DNA of 64,000 bases, from IMG/VR virus record IMGVR_UViG_3300042890_003920; one strand, written 5' to 3'. The position numbers and the translations under genes are program-made. The stretch's first letter is position 1; every line of letters begins with the position of its first letter. This document shows, piece by piece, positions 1 to 50,202 of the stretch. A model generated the notes under the pieces. That model did not search any database and was not told the DNA's origin. It was given only the letters and a program-made list of their open reading frames with translations. This DNA is from a virus. Taxonomy: Duplodnaviria > Heunggongvirae > Uroviricota > Caudoviricetes.

Positions 1-160
1 TACCAGAAGTACCAGAGGTTCCAGCTATACCAGAAGTTCCAGAAGTACCAGAGTTTGATTGTGTTAAACCAGCTAACTGATCTTCTAAATAGTGAAAGTT
101 GTTATCCATTTGAGCAACTGATAATGCTCCGTCTTGTTCTGATCTATATGTAATACCCAT
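1..160 (-). CDS. collagen-like repeat fibre protein, N-terminal part (gene runs off window start)
   Basis: minus-strand translation MGITYRSEQDGALSVAQMDNNFHYLEDQLAGLT followed by Gly-Thr-Ser triplet repeats; 95 bp at 66..160 near-identical to 1981..2075. Confidence 0.6.
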   Translation of the reverse strand, partial: MGITYRSEQDGALSVAQMDNNFHYLEDQLAGLTQSNSGTSGTSGIAGTSGTSG

Positions 161-266
161 TTTTTATATTTTTTTTATACTACTCTTTTATTTTGATATA
201 AATAAATGTAGCTCTCTGTGAAACAGTGTATAAAATCTGTACGTTTTTTATACACCTTTAACAAAT

Positions 267-2075
267 TTAGTTATATACTCTTATTTCGATTGGAGTTCTT
301 AATATTAAATCGTCTGCACCAGTACTACTCTGATTAGTTGCTATATATATATCATTAGAAGTAGTGTCTTCATTATCAACATAAAAGTCATAATCATTGA
401 TAGCCCAATGATTTTTACAAAAGAACACTACGGTTTTTAATAAAGGAAATCCACCAGTACTACTTAAAAAATATAAACCGGGAGAGTCTCTATTCCAAAC
501 GGGAGTAAAACCTAAAGTATTTTCTAACACAGAGGCTGTTGGTGATGCTGTACCACTCTGTGTTAATATAGCGGTATAAACTTTATATTTTGGTGCATAA
601 GCCGTAGTTTGAACCGAATTATCTGGGAATGTTATACTTCCAGTTGTACCAAATACCCAGTTTTCAGGTCCATCATTATCACCAGTTTGTATAGTAACAG
701 TTCCATTATCAGCAATCACTCTACCACTCTGATAACGAATTATTTCTATATCTATTCCAGTTATAGCCAAACTCGCAGTTGGTGCATTCTGGTCCACGGT
801 TAAAACTATTGGGTTTGACTGGACCTTATTCGTGATATTTAGGCTTACTGCTGTAGTTGGATCGTAAAACACTGTAAATATGTCTGTTGCTACTTGATAA
901 CCGTTTATGAAATTTACTAGAGTTGAATCTGGATTAGTAATAGTTATCAGATTGCCAGACCATGTAGCAGAATCATAGTTAGATCCTACAGAGCAACTTG
1001 CAGAATCTTGAGTGTATAAATTCTTTGAATTTATTTGTACTGTTTTACTAGTGTCACTAACTTTTAAGTTATTATCTTCACCACCAATGAATAGATCAGT
1101 TGCACTATCATCGATAGGACCACCTGCACGAATATGTATATGATTAGGACTTCCTTCAGTAGGATCTAATATAATGTATTGGTCAGTTTCTAAAGAAGAA
1201 TCTGGTTTTAATACTATTATTGGACCAAGACCAAGATTGACTGATTCTATTTGACTACCATTAGAATTTATAGCACCAGTAATATTCACATCACCATCTA
1301 CATCTAAAGCTACTGATGGATTGGTTGTTCCTATACCTATCTTACCATCATTAGTAATTCTCATTCTTTCATCACCATCAGTTTGCACGATTACGTTTCC
1401 TCCCGCGGTGCCTCCACCTCCTGCGTTTATAACGATATTACCACCAGTATTAGCTCCGTAACCAGATTCAATGTATACTTCACCACCATAACCATTATTA
1501 CTTTGTCCTGCATATATTTCAACAAAACCACCATCACCTGTATCTGTGTATCCACCTCTTATCTTAACTGTACCTCCTTCTGAGATACCTTCTCCTGCAT
1601 CAACTTTAATATCTCCACCATTTTGTCCTTTACCGGCCCATAGGTAAATGTCTCCACCTTCGCCACTGTAGGTAAGTCCATTTTGATAACTATCACCACC
1701 AGATATGACTAATCTTTCAACGGTCGGAGCAGATCCTGTTCCATCTTGAGTTGATATGATTTTTTGGTATACACTTCCTTTTTCAAATTGAAGGTTATCT
1801 CCGCTTCCTGTTCTTTGGTTACCTGGTAAGAATGGAAAACTAATTGCACCGGTTGTACCAAACCCTGCAGGTCCTGTAGCACCTTGTGGTCCAGTAGGTC
1901 CTTGAGGTCCTGTAGCACCATTTATACCAGAAGGTCCTGTAGCACCGGCAGGTCCAGTAGCACCAGAACCAGAGTTTGTTAAACCAGCTAACTGATCTTC
2001 TAAATAGTGAAAGTTGTTATCCATTTGAGCAACTGATAATGCACCGTCTTGTTCTGATCTATATGTAATACCCAT
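267..2075 (-). CDS. collagen-like (GxxGxxG) repeat fibre/tail-fibre-like protein, 602 aa
   Basis: long ORF; collagen triplet repeats GATGPAGATGPSGINGATGPQGPTGPQG near N-terminus then Gly/Thr/Asn-rich beta-rich body. Confidence 0.7.
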   Translation of the reverse strand: MGITYRSEQDGALSVAQMDNNFHYLEDQLAGLTNSGSGATGPAGATGPSGINGATGPQGPTGPQGATGPAGFGTTGAISFPFLPGNQRTGSGDNLQFEKGSVYQKIISTQDGTGSAPTVERLVISGGDSYQNGLTYSGEGGDIYLWAGKGQNGGDIKVDAGEGISEGGTVKIRGGYTDTGDGGFVEIYAGQSNNGYGGEVYIESGYGANTGGNIVINAGGGGTAGGNVIVQTDGDERMRITNDGKIGIGTTNPSVALDVDGDVNITGAINSNGSQIESVNLGLGPIIVLKPDSSLETDQYIILDPTEGSPNHIHIRAGGPIDDSATDLFIGGEDNNLKVSDTSKTVQINSKNLYTQDSASCSVGSNYDSATWSGNLITITNPDSTLVNFINGYQVATDIFTVFYDPTTAVSLNITNKVQSNPIVLTVDQNAPTASLAITGIDIEIIRYQSGRVIADNGTVTIQTGDNDGPENWVFGTTGSITFPDNSVQTTAYAPKYKVYTAILTQSGTASPTASVLENTLGFTPVWNRDSPGLYFLSSTGGFPLLKTVVFFCKNHWAINDYDFYVDNEDTTSNDIYIATNQSSTGADDLILRTPIEIRVYN

Positions 2076-11952: not shown

Positions 11953-12009
11953 ATGTCGTTATTTAATACAACAAAGATATGGATATTATTTTATAATATA
12001 TACATTATT

Positions 12010-12456
12010 ATGAAACATTTAAAAAAATTTAATGAAAGTTTAGAACCAGTTGAGATCGATGAGTTAAAAGACTTCTGTGAGACATCACTCGCTTATCTAT
12101 TAGATGATGGGTATCAAGTTAGTGTATATGAATCAAGATTTAAAGATGTATCTGTAAGAGATAAAGTAAAGTATCCTGAGAAAGAACATACAATTGTAAG
12201 TTTGGGTTTAAAAGGAAAAATGGGTTATAGGTTATTCGATTGGAATGATATAAAAGATTATTACATACCATTTCTTCAAATGTTAGTAAGAAGATATGAA
12301 TTACTACCTTTCGGAATGTATGATAAGATTTGTTATTTTAATACCGAAGGTGGTTTTAGATATTTATCATTAGATCAAGTTATAAATGATAGGGTTGGCT
12401 CAGAACTTGGTAGTCGTTTGTGGGGAATAAATATAATGATAGTAGATAAGATATGA
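12010..12456 (+). CDS. family-A protein (MKHLKKFNES…DFCETSLAYLLDDG…WNDIKDYYIPFL)
   Basis: true start at ATGAAACAT directly after TAATATATACATTATT motif; ORF-track N-extension rejected. Confidence 0.7.
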   Translation: MKHLKKFNESLEPVEIDELKDFCETSLAYLLDDGYQVSVYESRFKDVSVRDKVKYPEKEHTIVSLGLKGKMGYRLFDWNDIKDYYIPFLQMLVRRYELLPFGMYDKICYFNTEGGFRYLSLDQVINDRVGSELGSRLWGINIMIVDKI

Positions 12457-12893
12457 AACATTTGAAAAGATATAATGAAAGTTTACAACCTAATGAGGTT
12501 GACGAGTTAAAAGACTTCTGTGAGACTTCATTGGCTTATCTATTAGATGATGGATATAATGTTGATGTTTCTATAAGAAATTCAGTAGGGTATCCAGGAA
12601 ATAATCAAGTAATCGTAAGTTTGGGTTTACCTACATATAGTGAAAGTGGTTTACTGGATTATAAAAGGTTCCATTGGAATGATGTAAAAGATTATTACAT
12701 ACCATTTCTTCAAATCTTAGTAAGAAGATATGAGTTGCTGCCTTATAGAGGTGAGGGTTATGTTTATTTTAATGGTGAGATGGGATTTGACTATTTCTCA
12801 TTAGATGAAGTAATAGATGATACGGTCAGTGGTATGAATCACATTGGTAGTAGTTTATGGGGTATAAATATAAAAATAGTAGATAAGATATAA
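12453..12893 (+). CDS. family-A protein, recent tandem duplicate of previous
   Basis: high nucleotide identity of first about 100 bp to 12010..; ATGA overlap. Confidence 0.7.
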   Translation: MKHLKRYNESLQPNEVDELKDFCETSLAYLLDDGYNVDVSIRNSVGYPGNNQVIVSLGLPTYSESGLLDYKRFHWNDVKDYYIPFLQILVRRYELLPYRGEGYVYFNGEMGFDYFSLDEVIDDTVSGMNHIGSSLWGINIKIVDKI

Positions 12894-12958: not shown

Positions 12959-13735
12959 ATGAAATACTGTAGAAAACAAAGTGTAAGTTCAGGAAGAACT
13001 TTACGCTATATTAAAAGTTTTAATCAAACACTTGAGAACTACTCAACTGTTGCCAATACATTTAGAGGATTACGACCATCTATTAAAAATCTTGCCATAT
13101 TAACCGCACAGAACCCACATGGTGAGCAACATTCAAATGAGTTTAACAAATCTGCGAACCAAGAACTTGAAGAGGTTCTATCTAAAGCTAAATTAGGTTA
13201 TAAAAAGGTTAAAGGTTCGTATGTTCAAAAAGAGAAATCATTTATTGTTTTTAATATACCTTATGCAGTAGCTATAGAAATTGGTACAAGATTTAAACAA
13301 GATAGTATTATCTATGGTGAGATTAACGATAAACAAAGTTATGATGATGATGAATCAATGTTATTTAAAATTATAGGAACTGATCAAAGTAAGCCAGAAG
13401 AATATAAGAAAGTTTTGGCAGAAACTAGTGTTTTTGTTAGTAGAGATAATGCGGATGATTTTTATAGTGAGATTAAAGGTAGGAAATTTATATTACCATT
13501 TTATGATGTGATTGATCAATCTGATGATCCTACGATACTTAATATAAAAAAGGATTATACTGGAAGTAAATGGAAAGGTGGTAAAGCGGAACCTACATCA
13601 ACAACAACTTATCGACTTCCTGATTGGTTATTAAAATGGCAGCAAGATCAAAGGATAAAAGAACATGAGGAAAAACATTCAATGTACAATAAATCCAAAA
13701 AACCTTTCATTAGAAAGGTAACTGGTGATAACTAA
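12959..13735 (+). CDS. hypothetical protein, 258 aa
   Basis: ORF preceded by aattttaatatatacatt motif. Confidence 0.55.
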   Translation: MKYCRKQSVSSGRTLRYIKSFNQTLENYSTVANTFRGLRPSIKNLAILTAQNPHGEQHSNEFNKSANQELEEVLSKAKLGYKKVKGSYVQKEKSFIVFNIPYAVAIEIGTRFKQDSIIYGEINDKQSYDDDESMLFKIIGTDQSKPEEYKKVLAETSVFVSRDNADDFYSEIKGRKFILPFYDVIDQSDDPTILNIKKDYTGSKWKGGKAEPTSTTTYRLPDWLLKWQQDQRIKEHEEKHSMYNKSKKPFIRKVTGDN

Positions 13736-13749
13736 AAGTAAAGTATAAT

Positions 13750-15000
13750 ATGATACAATCTATAATAGGAACAAGTTTTACCGGAGGTTATAATCCACCT
13801 TTACCATTTGACATAACTGCTAACTGGAGTTTGACAACACCTGCTGTTGTAGATGAGGTATCTTTTAAAACTTTTCTAGAAAGTGGTGAAGATGGAGATG
13901 ATGAGACAAATGAGTTAACAGGTGTAGTCATTACTGACTTCTTACTTGAAGGAAACAGGTTAACTTGTAATCTTTCTGCTAGTGGTTATAATTTTTACCT
14001 TAGTTATACAGAAGTTTCAGTTGTAAATAGTATAGGTAATATTGTAGGATTAGAAAATTTGAATTTAAGTGTTAATCAAATAACATCATTCGATCCCTCT
14101 ATTGCATTACCTAGTTCATTACTTAGTTTAGCTTTAGGTGTCAATCAAATAACATCATTCGATCCCTCTATTGCTTTACCTAGCAGTTTACAACAATTAA
14201 GTTTAAGTGATAATCAATTAACATCATTTGATCCCTCTATTACTTTGCCTAGCAGTTTACAACAATTAAGTTTAAGTGATAATCAATTAACATCATTTGA
14301 TCCCTCTATTGCTTTACCTAATTCATTGTTAGAATTAAGTTTAAGTTATAATCAAGTATCGATGAACTTTACCCCAAGTTTACCATTACCCAGTTCATTA
14401 CAATATTTAAGCTTGGATAATTCTAATATAGTTACATTTGATCCAGCATATGATTTGCCTAGCAGTTTACAACAATTAAGTTTAAGTGATAATCAAATAG
14501 TGAATTTTACTCCAAGTAACTCGCTTGGGGGTGGATTACAATATTTAGATTTAAGTGATAATCAAATAGTAACATTTGATCCTGTTGCAGCATTACCAAG
14601 TTCATTACAATCAATATTCTTAAACCGCAATCAAATTGTGACATTTGATCCCACTATAGCTTTACCTACTGGATTAACAAGTTTAGATTTAACTGGTAAT
14701 CAAATTGTGACATTTGATCCCACTATAGCTTTACCTACTGGATTATTATACTTACAATTAGCGGATAATCAAATTGTTACATTTGATCCTAGCATTACGT
14801 TACCAAATTCATTAATTGTTTTAAATTTAGTTAATAATCAAATGACAACAGCTGGTTATACTGCATCTGAACCATGGGCAAATGCTATGTCTGTGATTCC
14901 TGGGAGAGGTAGTGTATATTTTGGTGCTAATCCAAATTCTGTAAGTGGAACAAATCTTGGAACAATATTACAATCTAAAGGTTGGAGTGTAAACGTATAA
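13750..15000 (+). CDS. leucine-rich-repeat protein (about 24-aa LRR units, L..L.LS.NQITSFDPS)
   Basis: about ten tandem LRR units encoded by 72-bp DNA repeats 14070..14830; N-terminus MIQSIIGTSFTGGYNP shared with next gene. Confidence 0.65.
   Translation: MIQSIIGTSFTGGYNPPLPFDITANWSLTTPAVVDEVSFKTFLESGEDGDDETNELTGVVITDFLLEGNRLTCNLSASGYNFYLSYTEVSVVNSIGNIVGLENLNLSVNQITSFDPSIALPSSLLSLALGVNQITSFDPSIALPSSLQQLSLSDNQLTSFDPSITLPSSLQQLSLSDNQLTSFDPSIALPNSLLELSLSYNQVSMNFTPSLPLPSSLQYLSLDNSNIVTFDPAYDLPSSLQQLSLSDNQIVNFTPSNSLGGGLQYLDLSDNQIVTFDPVAALPSSLQSIFLNRNQIVTFDPTIALPTGLTSLDLTGNQIVTFDPTIALPTGLLYLQLADNQIVTFDPSITLPNSLIVLNLVNNQMTTAGYTASEPWANAMSVIPGRGSVYFGANPNSVSGTNLGTILQSKGWSVNV
14070..14830 (+). repeat. 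tandem about 72-bp coding repeats (LRR units)
   Basis: repeated …aatcaaataacatcattcgatccctctattgctttacctag… blocks. Confidence 0.7.
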
Positions 15001-15014
15001 AAATAAAGTATAAT

Positions 15015-15752
15015 ATGATACAATCTATAATAGGAACAAGTTTTACAGGAGGTTATAATCCACAAGGTCCATCATTTAGACTTATGTTTACAGATATAAG
15101 TTTTGCTAATACCCTAGTAGGGGATGCGTCAAATGTTAATGATTGGAATACATATTTAGATTTACCTCTTTTGGGTACACCTTTCACTAGTGTAAACGTT
15201 AGTGGTGATGAAGTGTCTTTGTATGGCGGAGTAGGTATTACATTAAAAACTTCTGCATTTACTATTAATCTAAAAAAAAATGAAGTTCCTTATTTAGTTT
15301 CTGTAGATGATGAAAGTGGAGTGATTGTGGAATTACAAGAAGAAACTTTTTCAAGTCAATCATTATTAACAACTGTATCTTTACCACAACTAATTACTGC
15401 AGATATTTTCTGTTTTAATGGTTGTGACAATTTAGCCATTATTAATTTACCACAGTTAACAACTGCAGGTGTTGGCTGTTTTAATACTTGTGACAATTTA
15501 GCCATTATTAATTTACCACAGTTAACAACTGCAGGTGCTGGATGCTTTGCTGGTTGTAGTTTAACAACAGTAACATTACCTCTCTGTACAAACTTAGGTG
15601 GCGGTGTTTTAAATGATAATGTGTTTTCAGACATAATTGGAAACACAATTTCTTTAACTATACCTGAGTCTTTAATGACTTGTAATTCAGGAAATCCAGA
15701 TGGTGATATTCAATACTTGCAGGCAAATAACACAGTAACAATAATAAGTTAG
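15015..15752 (+). CDS. BspA-type LRR protein, N-terminal paralog of 13750..15000
   Basis: identical first 16 aa and upstream aaagtataat; internal repeat LPQLTTAG.GCF..CDNLAIINLPQLTTAG. Confidence 0.6.
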   Translation: MIQSIIGTSFTGGYNPQGPSFRLMFTDISFANTLVGDASNVNDWNTYLDLPLLGTPFTSVNVSGDEVSLYGGVGITLKTSAFTINLKKNEVPYLVSVDDESGVIVELQEETFSSQSLLTTVSLPQLITADIFCFNGCDNLAIINLPQLTTAGVGCFNTCDNLAIINLPQLTTAGAGCFAGCSLTTVTLPLCTNLGGGVLNDNVFSDIIGNTISLTIPESLMTCNSGNPDGDIQYLQANNTVTIIS

Positions 15753-16869: not shown

Positions 16870-17406
16870 TTATTTAAAGAATGATTTTAATTTGGTTAGA
16901 ACAGATTTATTTTCTTGTTTATATCCATCTATTATAAATTCAAACTCTGTTATATAAGATTCTAAAACATCATCAGTATCAGTATCATAATAAAGACCTG
17001 ATTTTATATCATCATTGATTAGTTTATTTACTTGGTAAAATAATTCTGTTTTACGATGAGGCCAGTGTTGTCTAGCAGCTTCTAAGTCACGTGTTACTTC
17101 TATTATGACATCTTTTTTATTTTTACGAGTATGTCCCATTTGTCTAGCATATTGTTTAAGTTCATATTGATTAGTAAGTCTGGTTAAGAATGGTATCATA
17201 TGGTCTTTTATATCGGACCATAATCTAGGATTCTCATTTAATTCTAGTGTAAGTTTGAAACTTAAACCTAAACCACTTCTAACTAACGTTATAGAAATAT
17301 TTAATTCTTCATCTAATAGATAAGCTAGATTCATTTCACAGAAGTCTTGTAGTTCTTCTTTGAAGGTGTCACCTACTGCTTCATTGAATGGTTTAATATG
17401 TTTCAT
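16870..17406 (-). CDS. family-A protein (MKHIKPFNEA…DFCEMNLAYLLDEE…WSDIKDHMIPFL)
   Basis: family motifs. Confidence 0.65.
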   Translation of the reverse strand: MKHIKPFNEAVGDTFKEELQDFCEMNLAYLLDEELNISITLVRSGLGLSFKLTLELNENPRLWSDIKDHMIPFLTRLTNQYELKQYARQMGHTRKNKKDVIIEVTRDLEAARQHWPHRKTELFYQVNKLINDDIKSGLYYDTDTDDVLESYITEFEFIIDGYKQENKSVLTKLKSFFK

Positions 17407-17408
17407 AT

Positions 17409-18635
17409 TTAGAGAATGAATTTATTTACAATACTAGATATTTGACTGGCTCCATTTTTACATATATCATGGTGTTCTACTCCTGGTATAACTGTTAAAG
17501 ATGTTTTATCATTAGGAAAATTACCTTTGTCATCTTTTTCAGCTTGTTCCTTAGTAAGTACACCTGAGTCTGTTTTACCAGCTCTAATAATTAAACACTC
17601 AACACTATCATCTAACTTTTCTATTTCTTTTGGATCTCTCTGTAATGATCCAACCATACCAATCGCTTGACTGTGTAAGAAATCTATATTATATTTTCTA
17701 TCTCCATTTTCTATATCACAATAGTAGTTCTTTTTATCTGATGAATCAAATTTATCTTCTACTATCCAAACATTATTAGGATTTTTAATACCTGATGAAG
17801 TAATAATTGATTTGATGTATTCAATAGATGTTTTACCATCATTTGTTGGTATTTCTTCTTGCTTCACACCTTTTTTCCAAACTGATGATGGATTAGTTTT
17901 ACTAGGATAATGTTTACCTACTCTTTCTGTGAATGGTTCATCTATGAATTCAATTACAAGTTCTTTTGTTGCTCTCCATTTTTCATAATCTGATTGTAAT
18001 TTGAATTCAAAATCTGATAGTTTTGCTTTACTAAAATCAAAATCTGATGGATTTTTTTTATGTACTTCTGGTTTATATGTATATTTGAATTGAATAATTT
18101 CGTCTTTTGTTGGATTAGTTTGAGAATCTTTTTCATAAAAAGGAAAGGTAACACAATTATACCTTCTCATTGTGTTATTTTTCATTGTTGTACTTACATA
18201 TTTATCAGGTGCTATTGCATTAGGAGCGGCAGCATCTATACATATAAATTTACCTTTGAAATCTGATCCTAATTCTTTAATTATCCAAAATCCAAAAGTT
18301 GTACCCATTGAAAATCCTAGAATAGATAAATTAGGATATGATTTTAATTGTTTTGCGATTTCCTTACATCTATCTTTACCATTATCTTTAACGTTCTCAT
18401 CATATGAAAATGTTATTAAGTTAAATGTTTCTTTTAACAGAGAAGCAAGTACCTCGTAATCATCTATTGGATTACCACCACCACCTGGAATTAAAAGAAG
18501 TGTTGGTTTATTTTTATCATTATCTGATTCTATTGGATAAGGTTGAATAATAAATTTCTCAGGTGATAATTTTTCTTTATTATCTTCTAATATAAGTCTA
18601 AATTGTTTATATAACTTTAAGTGTTTCATAATCAT
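17409..18635 (-). CDS. alpha/beta-hydrolase-fold protein with family-A N-terminus (MIMKHLKLYKQF)
   Basis: GFSMG nucleophile-elbow motif, LLLIPGGGGN; 408 aa. Confidence 0.55.
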   Translation of the reverse strand: MIMKHLKLYKQFRLILEDNKEKLSPEKFIIQPYPIESDNDKNKPTLLLIPGGGGNPIDDYEVLASLLKETFNLITFSYDENVKDNGKDRCKEIAKQLKSYPNLSILGFSMGTTFGFWIIKELGSDFKGKFICIDAAAPNAIAPDKYVSTTMKNNTMRRYNCVTFPFYEKDSQTNPTKDEIIQFKYTYKPEVHKKNPSDFDFSKAKLSDFEFKLQSDYEKWRATKELVIEFIDEPFTERVGKHYPSKTNPSSVWKKGVKQEEIPTNDGKTSIEYIKSIITSSGIKNPNNVWIVEDKFDSSDKKNYYCDIENGDRKYNIDFLHSQAIGMVGSLQRDPKEIEKLDDSVECLIIRAGKTDSGVLTKEQAEKDDKGNFPNDKTSLTVIPGVEHHDICKNGASQISSIVNKFIL

Positions 18636-18643
18636 TAATTTTT

Positions 18644-18868
18644 TTATTCTAATTCATCAAGAAATTTTTTATAGTCAAACTTAATCTTCTCTTTTTTGAA
18701 TTGTTTAACCATATCATTGGCTATCTCTATTCTATTTTCTTTATCTTTGACTTTCTTTAGTATATCAATTATACCTGATACCATTTGGTAATAGTTATTA
18801 TTACCAAGCTCTGCTTTTATTTCAGATTTAGATTCTTTTACTTGTGAGTATGTTTTTAAATGTTTCAT
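18644..18868 (-). CDS. small protein with MKHLKTYSQ N-terminus
   Basis: ORF 74 aa; phage-type motif taatttaatatataaact upstream. Confidence 0.5.
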   Translation of the reverse strand: MKHLKTYSQVKESKSEIKAELGNNNYYQMVSGIIDILKKVKDKENRIEIANDMVKQFKKEKIKFDYKKFLDELE

Positions 18869-48720: not shown

Positions 48721-50202
48721 ATGATATACCCAGGAACCTTCTCTTTAACACTTAGAGAAACAGAAGAAACAAGATTATCCGTTAAGCAAATGGATGACAA
48801 TTTAAAATTTTTAAACAACTTAGCTGATTCAGGTGGAAGTGGAACATCTGGTTCTTCTGGAACATCTGGTTCTTCTGGAACATCTGGTTCTTCTGGAACA
48901 TCTGGAGAACAAGGAATTCAAGGAGTTCAAGGTAATCAAGGTGGGCAAGGTATTGAAGGTCCAGTTGGTGTTTCGGGTTTAACTTGGCAAGGTTCTTGGA
49001 GTAATAACTCTTTATATGATATGAATGATGCTGTCGGTTATGCGTCAGCTTCTTGGTGGTGTGTTGCGACAGTTAGTTCAACAGCATCTGTAATAGCACC
49101 AGATTTAGATATAACAAATATAAATTGGACATTATTGGCCGCTCAAGGATCTCAAGGCCCAATGGGTGCACAAGGTGTTCAAGGACCAACAGGACCTCAA
49201 GGTATTCAAGGACCAACAGGACCTGGAGGATCTTCTACACAAACTTATGGTATAATGTCTCTTAATACAAACAATCCGAATGGAGAAACACTTGCGTATG
49301 ATATAAATAGAATTACTGCATTGGTAACTTGTCCAGTACGTTTACCAGCTTCAGCTCCAATAGGAAAAGAAATAAGTGTTTTTTCAGAAGTAAGTAGTGC
49401 TAGTGTAACAATATTCGGTGATAGTGTATTAAGTCTACCATTTCCATTCTTAATGGGTTCTGCAAATCAACAAACAGGTGCATTTTCAATTTTTGCTGGG
49501 GAGTCCTACGTATTTACTAGTTTGGGAAATGGTTTATGGAAAGTTAATAGCATATCTAAAACTATAATGTCTGGCTCTTCTGCTAGAACAAATGCCACAA
49601 GTACCACGATAAATGCAACAAATGTGTCTGTTTTGAATATAAATAATTCAGAAGGAAATATATTATCTAAAGATTCACTGAGATTTAGAAGAGACAATGG
49701 CTCTGGAACTAATAAATATATTGATTTATTAGTTCCTACTAACATTACTAATGATAGAACTATTACATTTCCAGACGCTACAGGTACTGTTGCTTTGACA
49801 AGTGCTATAGTTACTAAATCTGTGAAAGTAACGTTATCTTCTGCTGATTTATTAGGTTTAAATACAACTCCAAAAGTAATAATACCTGCGGTCTCAGGAA
49901 AGATTATAATTCCAACTCATATGTATCAAAATTATACATACAATAGTGCAAGTTATAATGTAAGTTCAAACGCTACTATTGGTTACCAAGGATTCAGTCC
50001 TCTATCACAAGTCGCATATGCACAAGTTGGTCTTACAATTACACCGTCTACAGATTCTTTTGCTATTAATGCACTATTTATGAGTTGGGTAACTTCTCAA
50101 TCATTAGTTAACACAAACATAACATTAGTATCTTCTACTGCAATAACATCCGGTAATGGTACACTGGATGTTTATGTGACATATTTTGAAATCGATGCAT
50201 AA
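48721..50202 (+). CDS. collagen-like repeat fibre protein, 493 aa
   Basis: GSSGTSGSSGTSG… and GEQGIQGVQGNQGGQGIEGPVG triplets; N-terminus related to 267..2075. Confidence 0.7.
   Translation: MIYPGTFSLTLRETEETRLSVKQMDDNLKFLNNLADSGGSGTSGSSGTSGSSGTSGSSGTSGEQGIQGVQGNQGGQGIEGPVGVSGLTWQGSWSNNSLYDMNDAVGYASASWWCVATVSSTASVIAPDLDITNINWTLLAAQGSQGPMGAQGVQGPTGPQGIQGPTGPGGSSTQTYGIMSLNTNNPNGETLAYDINRITALVTCPVRLPASAPIGKEISVFSEVSSASVTIFGDSVLSLPFPFLMGSANQQTGAFSIFAGESYVFTSLGNGLWKVNSISKTIMSGSSARTNATSTTINATNVSVLNINNSEGNILSKDSLRFRRDNGSGTNKYIDLLVPTNITNDRTITFPDATGTVALTSAIVTKSVKVTLSSADLLGLNTTPKVIIPAVSGKIIIPTHMYQNYTYNSASYNVSSNATIGYQGFSPLSQVAYAQVGLTITPSTDSFAINALFMSWVTSQSLVNTNITLVSSTAITSGNGTLDVYVTYFEIDA
48841..48906 (+). 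repeat. perfect 18-bp microsatellite (ggaacatctggttcttct) x3.6 in collagen-like gene
   Basis: seen directly. Confidence 0.9.

Follow-up and report, generated by a model that had tools for sequence, protein, structure and literature searches.

The stretch of viral DNA analysed here (IMG/VR record IMGVR_UViG_3300042890_003920; 64,000 nt in all, hereafter the window) carries two co-directional genes that begin with the same short sequence and then encode different leucine-rich repeat (LRR) proteins. Gene A (13750-15000, + strand) is an open reading frame (ORF) of 416 amino acids (aa) made of a leader, an N-terminal cap, 11 LRR units and a C-terminal cap. Gene B (15015-15752, +) is an ORF of 245 aa in which the leader is followed by an N-terminal domain, BspA-type LRR units and a C-terminal cap (NPDGDIQYLQANNTVTIIS). 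An earlier note on this DNA had pointed out the common start. We find that what the two genes share at the 5' end is an N-terminal tag, present throughout a family and joined to exchangeable modules, a point which that note had missed; the tag-plus-module architecture, taken together with the hypervariability of the family, very probably describes these genes correctly. We envision that the tag may serve to dock binding modules on the virion.

The gene pair and its shared 66-bp block

The two genes have in common a direct repeat of 66 bp (13733-13798 and 14998-15063), identical at 64 of its 66 positions, and the shared 5' end of about 60 bp described earlier is thus real. The block is organized as a small cassette: the upstream gene's TAA stop is followed by 14 nt of spacer, the last six of which are TATAAT, and then by an ATG and 16 leader codons (MIQSIIGTSFTGGYNP). 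In the first copy (13733-13798, +) the spacer reads AAGTAAAGTATAAT, and the leader that follows (aa 1-16 of gene A) occupies 13750-13797 (+). In the second copy (14998-15063, +) it is the stop of gene A that precedes the 14-nt spacer, the ATG and the 16 leader codons. Patterns derived from the block match these two sites only within the window, where shuffled sequence leads one to expect 0.00-0.02 matches by chance. Directly after the leader come the residues PLP or QGP, and no homology between genes A and B was detected beyond codon 16. Since the leader is conserved, we prefer the ATG at 15015 as the start of gene B and chose it over the TTG at 14982. An assembly artefact of the duplicated block was considered and is ruled out by the same A+B structure in a second sample and by stand-alone leader-B genes elsewhere.

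A scan for sigma-70 promoters and terminators gave nothing above background, and RNA structure around the two window leaders is not significant (z = 0.1 and 0.7). The shared block has no Shine-Dalgarno sequence, as is usual in Bacteroidota. At two related metagenomic loci, L036 (4240-4275) and L038 (7197-7230), a perfect 12-13-bp hairpin with the loop TTATAAT lies directly after the leader (-28.8 kcal/mol, z = -4.6); its arms are made of Gly codons (GGAGGTGG) and Pro codons (CCACCTCC), and the hairpin is degenerate in both window copies.

After the common start, the genes diverge into two LRR types, just as the earlier note had stated. Gene A matches the Pfam families LRR_4 (E 6e-31, 106 bits against a cut-off of 27) and LRR_8 (E 2e-25, 88.5 bits against 27), and for gene B the match is to the BspA-type LRR_5 (E 9e-14; score 51.9 bits, gathering cut-off 27.7). 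The A-type N-terminal cap domain (13798-14049, +; aa 17-100, FDITANW...FLESG...CNL) contains columns that are invariant in the family alignment. It is followed by eleven LRR units (14050-14811, +; LxxLxLxxNQIxxFDPxxxLPxx), ten of 69 bp and one, unit 5, of 72 bp, and then by a partial twelfth LRR with the C-terminal cap (14812-14997, +; NQMTTAGYTASEPWANAMSVIPGRG...GTNLGTILQSKGWSVNV), which is nearly invariant in 16 homologues and terminates every A-type module. The array had been described as about ten near-identical units of 24 aa encoded by 72-bp repeats, and this has to be corrected: Tandem Repeats Finder (TRF) and a repeat search give a period of 69 bp or 23 aa, 24 aa being found in unit 5 only, and the 11 full units are on average 66% identical in pairwise DNA comparisons (range 49-90%). 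Exact in-register repeats of 63, 48, 43, 39 and 32 nt do occur within the array.

When gene A is modelled by AlphaFold2 (AF2) with the family alignment, the structure prediction that had been called for earlier, it is predicted to form a standard LRR solenoid with both caps and one short strand per unit, at a predicted local distance difference test score (pLDDT) of 88.3. Residues 20-99 form strands and a helix (pLDDT >90), and residues 1-14 stay below 50. In the PDB, Foldseek gives YopM, SspH2 and LRR proteins of Leptospira as its best fold matches (E 3e-8 to 2e-7); in a viral structure library the matches are generic LRR proteins of giant viruses. Over 84 LRR units from 15 homologues, variability peaks at positions 2, 3, 5, 7 and 8 of the unit, with 2.7-3.5 bits against 0-0.5 bits at scaffold positions. 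These variable positions are the x positions of LxxLxLxxN and thus lie on the concave face of the solenoid.

Gene B contains tandem coding repeats of its own, unmentioned in the earlier note: three BspA-type LRR units (15380-15577, +) of 66 bp or 22 aa each, for which TRF gives a period of 66 with 87% matches. The number of units ranges from one to at least 7 among B-type homologues. The AF2 model made with the family alignment reaches a pLDDT of 88.4, residues 1-15 again staying below 50. The best fold matches, PcpA (4cp6), BACOVA_04585 (4fs7) and TpLRR (6mlx), are weak (E 2e-3 to 8e-3, TM 0.4). Within gene B, a run of nine A at 15272-15280 (codons L-K-K-N) is a possible slippage or frameshift hotspot; a homologue, P0001, has LKNDE at that place.

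Leader, cargos and variation

The leader recurs nearly unchanged at the nucleotide level in related metagenomic contigs, where it heads at least six cargo architectures. These are assembled from A-type modules (N-cap, 23-aa LRRs, C-cap), B-type modules (N-domain, 22-aa BspA LRRs, C-cap), LamG and Ig-like domains. The simplest is a 126-aa protein of L037, in which the leader is followed by an Ig-like domain only. In the 618-aa protein of L036 (P0010), the leader precedes an Ig-like domain, a lectin-like LamG domain and one A-type module. Three leader genes of L038 encode 1,439 aa (Ig-like plus four complete A-type modules), 349 aa (Ig-like plus LamG) and 266 aa (a cargo of no recognised type). 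Stand-alone B-type proteins of about 200-330 aa come from several sources (e.g. P0123, P0133), and the 685-aa P0001 joins the leader to A, a second A-type module (A') and B. The leader was also seen in P0205. This tally is incomplete and thus a lower bound: a search of JGI metagenomes for the exact leader DNA returned one match (L037), a degenerate leader pattern had zero matches in IMG/VR, a leader-profile search returned two fragments and a hidden Markov model search of the whole library three matches.

Several observations set the leader apart from what it precedes. When the A-family and B-family alignments are compared by hhalign, only the leader columns match (probability 97.9%, E 4e-13), and the cargos remain unmatched. 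In multi-module proteins each module opens at LPFD(I/V)TANW, and in gene A this opening comes directly after the 16-aa leader; in the 1,439-aa protein of L038, all four modules begin with the A-type N-terminal cap domain. Because the start of the module coincides with the end of the leader, we consider the leader a separate, lineage-specific element that is joined to exchangeable cargo. Gly runs of variable length and Pro-rich linkers follow it. Genes 2 and 3 of L038 keep the leader peptide, and their 5' untranslated sequences differ.

This arrangement is not restricted to a single leader. Among the leader-cargo combinations read from 40 homologues, at least three further leader classes head both A- and B-type cargos: MAK..KAYVRYDG.GRI..ECCN (about 45 aa), MNIEE.RKQSIEQFA..GASGGG (about 50 aa) and MIQSIIGTSF. 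Searched against phages by tblastn, the 46-aa MAK..ECCN leader gave insignificant Klebsiella matches only. Similar sharing of N-terminal sequences is seen at other loci. In L007, two adjacent genes, one with an LRR cargo and one with a non-LRR cargo, both begin with MALVRNSI; tandem LRR genes of L003-L006 (IMG/VR) have ..DIF(S/A)CF.I.CC.. in common; and a 1,295-aa gene and an LRR gene of L001/L002 have IGW..QNL...Q.NK in common. Three leader classes end in a Cys-Cys motif.

The close relatives then reveal how such proteins vary. Synteny with the window is seen at two metagenomic loci, L035 and L041 (ENA ERZ27280212 and ERZ27280238). Their upstream block, which contains the DUF3293 gene, is 93.8% identical to that of the window, the HD-domain gene 98-99% and the B module 92-93%, against about 85% for the A N-domain and no segment above about 84% in the LRR array. 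In these comparisons the window locus is a divergence island between conserved flanks. In both relatives a single ORF starts with the leader, goes on to an A module of four LRRs and another A-type module, and closes with a B module. This fused ORF lacks cassette copy 2, whose identity to the one leader that the relatives do have is 98.4%. In P0001, the A'-B junction (GWTVQGNVDLPPFRLMFTD) runs through without stop or leader, at the place where the window has a stop, a spacer and a second leader. Since one ORF in the relatives corresponds to a stop, a spacer and a leader in the window, the A/B split is a fission/fusion polymorphism of close relatives.

Whole repeat units differ as well. P0001 (685 aa) and P0246 (707 aa) align over 685 residues without a single substitution, the sole difference being one 22-aa BspA unit; their DNA is 100% identical over the 2,843 nt leading to the 66-bp indel, and 10 mismatches occur in the next 850 nt. 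The indel falls in the BspA array that lies at 15380-15577 in the window, whose gene B is the longer form. The orthologues of L001 and L002 are separated by a clean 116-aa gap (about five units) in the LRR array, while the downstream protein is 97% identical, and homologues that share one architecture are anywhere between 332 and 521 aa long. The earlier proposal that recombination may change the number of units is thus supported in kind by close relatives. For gene A itself no length variation was observed: only one further sample carries exactly this A+B pair, and there it is unaltered.

Thus, the family shows a tag-plus-cargo organization with autonomous modules, a variable concave face and three levels of structural variation. 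Whole LRR units are gained and lost via recombination or slippage between the 66-bp or 69-bp coding repeats; whole modules are swapped from gene to gene and from locus to locus, by way of conserved sequences in the leader, the caps and the N-domain; and genes split or fuse via the presence or absence of the 66-bp stop-spacer-start-leader cassette. The outcome that by the earlier note would have refuted its reading, namely no length variation and an ordinary conserved structural LRR protein, is contradicted by these differences in genes, modules and units between relatives.

The edge of the first cassette copy may preserve a trace of such exchanges. The last 24 nt of the DUF3293 gene (13709-13732, +), a probable recombination scar between the two leader loci, match the 3' end of a fibre-like gene in L036 and L038 at 21 of 24 positions, with one gap and in another reading frame, and by blastn L036 4161-4254 is 91.6% identical to window 13709-13800. 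Such a match out of frame points to the fibre locus as the source of the window locus, through ectopic recombination.

A proposed docking role for the leader

To explain these results we propose that genes A and B encode modular adhesins displayed on the virion and docked there via the leader, a reading to which we give a probability of about 0.55. Each family protein is built of a short lineage-specific leader (MIQSIIGTSFTGG), a flexible Gly/Pro linker and one or more self-contained cargo modules. The leader would be a docking peptide that tethers all paralogues to one common virion partner, probably the large fibre-like protein whose gene lies just 5' of them in relatives. The concave faces of the LRRs would bind host-surface ligands, and the family members could thus act as accessory adhesins or receptor-binding modules.

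We favour this docking role because the folds found in the cargos, namely LRR, BspA-LRR, LamG and Ig-like, are typical of binding modules and because leader genes directly follow a fibre-like gene in relatives. In fact, the leader genes of L036, L037 and L038 lie immediately 3' of a gene for a fibre-like protein of 1,365-1,446 aa, and in L038 all three stand in tandem directly after the 1,446-aa gene. The N-terminus of this 1,446-aa protein, for which no PDB relative was found, has the motif ..AEMDNNF.YL.. as in the collagen-like fibre proteins of the window, and the LamG cargo matches a PHROG annotated as a baseplate wedge subunit (E 5e-9). The Gly runs and Pro-rich linkers after the leader point the same way, as does a cultured Flavobacterium myovirus, MaF61, in which the tandem ORF176, ORF175 and ORF174 share an N-domain and follow a 1,351-aa protein. 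The same logic is known from gp38, from T5 pb1 and from the LRR members of the Goslar DUF7941 proteins.

A number of points weigh against this role. No capsid, portal or terminase gene was recognised in the 64 kb, the genes that flank A and B (DUF3293 and HD-domain) offer no recognisable structural module, and PHROG and Pfam scans of neighbouring genes in the window, L038, L039, MaF61, L001, L006, L007 and a Flavobacterium degerlachei element returned no structural annotation by which a place in the virion could be proved. Documented fibre anchors are longer than the 13-16-aa leader, and LRR solenoids are usually monomers whereas classical receptor-binding proteins are trimers. As to variability, the A+B pair is identical in both samples that carry it, and the one-unit indel comes from short-read assemblies, in which a tandem repeat may have collapsed, yet 132 bp is shorter than the k of 141.

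Known phage proteins offer several points of comparison. In T2/T6-type phages, the N-terminal attachment domain of gp38 pairs with the tip of gp37 (PMC3157838). As proposed for our family, gp38 is a monomeric accessory adhesin whose gene lies directly downstream of a fibre gene; a few N-terminal attachment subtypes are combined with a hypervariable C-terminal specificity part and glycine-rich elements, and recombination in conserved segments alters specificity (PMC3157838). However, there is no relation in sequence or fold, the attachment part of genes A and B comprises only 13-16 aa, the cargos here are LRR, LamG or Ig-like modules, up to four repeats of them, carried by several paralogues with the same tag, and binding to a fibre is inferred. 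An anchor is also formed by residues 1-40 of T5 pb1 (PMC12750041). The Goslar (Chimalliviridae) DUF7941 'fibre cloud' resembles the family in that paralogues of a large phage have an N-terminal module in common, joined to carbohydrate-binding, glycosidase or LRR/beta-helix domains with a proposed role in host recognition (bioRxiv 10.64898/2026.04.21.720040). DUF7941 is a folded domain of chimalliviruses only, in contrast to a short unstructured peptide in viruses of another host phylum, and the Pfam scan found no DUF7941 in genes A and B, all matches falling within the LRR regions.

Relatives in a cultured virus are found in MaF61 (PQ858689; PMC13269007), which belongs to the same host group. 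ORF176 and ORF175 contain LRRs and a related C-terminal cap (tblastn E 5e-12), and with ORF174 they form a tandem having a common N-terminal part, after the 1,351-aa protein. Here, though, the common part is a domain of about 95 aa, unrelated in sequence, and LRR identity is about 30%. The record annotates these ORFs only as 'putative leucine-rich repeat protein', and the paper is silent on the function of the LRR ORFs (PMC13269007). Gene B, finally, is above the LRR_5 cut-off and has its best fold matches among surface and adhesin proteins of the BspA/TpLRR/PcpA type. Apart from the weak Foldseek values (E 2e-3 to 8e-3), it differs from these in that they are bacterial proteins with secretion signals and anchors, while gene B carries the leader of a phage family and N- and C-terminal domains of its own.

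The short leader could also have a quite different purpose. T4 internal proteins, with their capsid targeting sequence (CTS), are likewise unrelated, tandem, hypervariable proteins with a short common N-terminal peptide (PMC3012670), but they are small anti-restriction proteins from which the prohead protease cleaves the CTS (PMC3012670), whereas the cargos here are large binding domains without a visible protease-type site. If the leader of genes A and B were such a signal for the virion interior, the cargos would travel inside the particle and be injected as effectors that might, for instance, bind defence proteins of the host, and their hypervariability would reflect an intracellular arms race. 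The formal pattern is the same, the leader is unstructured on its own in the AF2 models, the window locus lies among non-structural genes, and LRR effectors, YopM and SspH2, are the top fold matches of gene A. We nevertheless find this quite unlikely: the cleavage motif of the T4 CTS ends in Glu, and MIQSIIGTSFTGGYNP contains no Glu and so no T4-type protease site; cargos reach 1,439 aa with four LRR modules; lectin-like, Ig-like and BspA-like folds are typical of extracellular binding; and the genes follow a fibre-like gene in relatives. Another unlikely possibility is that the shared block matters mainly as nucleic acid, as a portable cassette for translation start or recombination, made of a stop, an A-rich spacer, an ATG and unstructured 5' coding sequence, whose peptide has no docking role, the proteins being free in the infected cell or after lysis. 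This would account for a block that is 92-98% identical between contexts next to cargo of about 75-85%, for homology that extends to about 24 nt upstream of the stop in another reading frame, for the hairpin of L036 and L038 and for the lack of a Shine-Dalgarno sequence. It would not account for L038 genes 2 and 3, where the peptide persists although the 5' untranslated sequences before it differ, nor for the window copies, which lack significant RNA structure; and the same leader-by-cargo combinatorics in unrelated leader classes of 45-50 aa points to a function at the protein level.

Two simpler explanations fare worse. Genes A and B might be ordinary paralogues of a recent tandem duplication, conserved and non-variable structural LRR proteins with a leftover common 5' end, as their adjacency, the 97% identity of the 66-bp repeat and the identical pair in two samples would allow. 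Such an origin is very improbable given that the cargos belong to different LRR classes without detectable homology, that many other cargos bear the leader, which is also found at a second locus, and that close relatives differ in gene, module and unit number. The chance that the leader acts in secretion, as a signal of the Sec, lipoprotein or T9SS (type IX secretion system) kind through which infected cells would release the LRR proteins, is close to negligible. A nuclease with a T9SS Por_Secre_tail on a related contig does imply that the virus uses host secretion for some proteins. The signal-peptide check that had been proposed earlier was negative for both genes by composition and hydropathy: K/R is absent from the 16-aa leader and from residues 1-30 of gene A, while the same stretch of gene B has a single Arg at position 22, outside the leader, and in these 30 aa there is neither a Cys nor a hydrophobic core (maximum 15-aa Kyte-Doolittle mean 0.38). 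A Por_Secre_tail or other C-terminal sorting domain was likewise absent from A and B in the Pfam scan.

A conserved N-terminal anchor with an exchangeable distal binding module is well known from phage receptor-binding proteins, and so is polymorphism of coding repeats. What is new here is a family with LRR cargo in phages of Bacteroidota, its very short common tag, strings of up to four LRR modules and the stop-start-leader cassette; we found no paper describing this leader-tagged LRR family in the literature. If the leader is a docking tag, the family would be a compact natural example of a phage diversifying its binding at three nested levels that are visible in metagenomes, and phages of Flavobacterium-like bacteria would possess an LRR-based receptor-binding repertoire. 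Host recognition in Flavobacterium-type phages is almost unstudied, and such phages are of relevance to lakes and aquaculture. A 13-residue tag able to load arbitrary cargo on a virion would also be useful for phage display and engineering. More speculatively, the leader could be a universal plug into one virion socket of a very large Bacteroidota phage and the cassette a portable device that splits polyproteins into subunits docking separately or joins them again, so that number, kind and valency of modules are constantly reshuffled. We hold this stronger version to be doubtful, but if true it would amount to a plug-and-play display system for LRR modules, undescribed so far for phages. If the proteins are not virion components, a clear repeat-number polymorphism in viral coding repeats would still be left, of narrower interest.

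Host, genome and neighbouring genes

The gene A protein is found in exactly this form on a metagenomic contig of 92,785 bp (NCBI GCA_043533215.1 = JGI 3300042894), and the identical A+B pair is also present on a 5.4-kb contig from a second sample, JGI 3300059473. We assign the genes to an uncultured virus because 33 IMG/VR loci contain relatives of A or B, because of the fibre-like genes and because a cultured Flavobacterium myovirus encodes homologues. LRR proteins on phages, called uncommon in the earlier note, are indeed rare among deposited phages, with 2 and 1 matching records out of 50,697 for the two families, but the family of genes A and B is common in metagenomes, where at least 292 and at least 297 homologues were found. 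By megablast, the region has no match in the same 50,697 GenBank phage records. Chromosomal homologues all come from Flavobacterium or other Bacteroidota and, together with the T9SS-tailed nuclease of the syntenic relative, they make a Bacteroidota host likely, most likely a Flavobacterium-like one. One of them, P0028 of L042 (Flavobacterium degerlachei FNMV01000009.1, 144998-166785), lies inside an element bounded by an integrase, where its neighbours include a GH108/PG_binding_3 lysin, an ArdC-N/MPTase-PolyVal protein and a reverse transcriptase; no neighbour has a PHROG match.

The window and L038 come from the same sample, and a contig record of 111,255 bp encodes the gene B protein without any change together with an exact match to part of the 1,439-aa protein. 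About the same length results from summing the contigs of the window (92,785 bp) and of L038 (18,690 bp), and we infer one genome with at least five leader genes at two loci. The contig of L041 (k141_468807, ENA ERZ27280238) measures 433,174 bp, and the virus genome may therefore be very large; its size may be 111 kb or at least 433 kb. A 22-kb stretch of L041 contains an Endonuclease_1 gene with a Por_Secre_tail, a cyanophycin-synthetase-like gene and a PP-binding gene, and L038 encodes adenylosuccinate synthase and a HisRS-like protein.

The window itself has a G+C content of about 30%, and no tRNA genes were found in it. It encodes ThyA, FolD, methyltransferases, a set of MKHLK paralogues and collagen-like proteins that match tail-fibre PHROGs via their collagen part. 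The MKH(L/I)K paralogues lie at 11953-12456 and 12453-12893 (+) and at 16870-17406, 17409-18635 and 18644-18868 (-), and three of them continue as ..FNE...E..DFCE..LAYLLD. By tblastn, no phage relatives were found for the 146-aa MKHLK paralogue or for a 799-aa ORF. The two plus-strand copies, upstream of the DUF3293 gene, are absent from the syntenic place in L041, which has a related inverted copy elsewhere.

Collagen-like fibre genes occupy 1-169 (-), 267-2075 (-) and 48721-50202 (+). The motif ..(A/K)QMD(N/D)N.. is common to these three genes and to the fibre-like genes of L036 and L038 (1,365-1,446 aa), and in the 602-aa protein residues 225-260 match a fibre protein of Bdellovibrio, bd2133 (8OND, E 2e-5). 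The tandem collagen-like genes at the start of the window have identical N-termini (MGITYRSEQDGALSVAQMDNNFHYLEDQLAGLT), a pattern like that of the leader of genes A and B.

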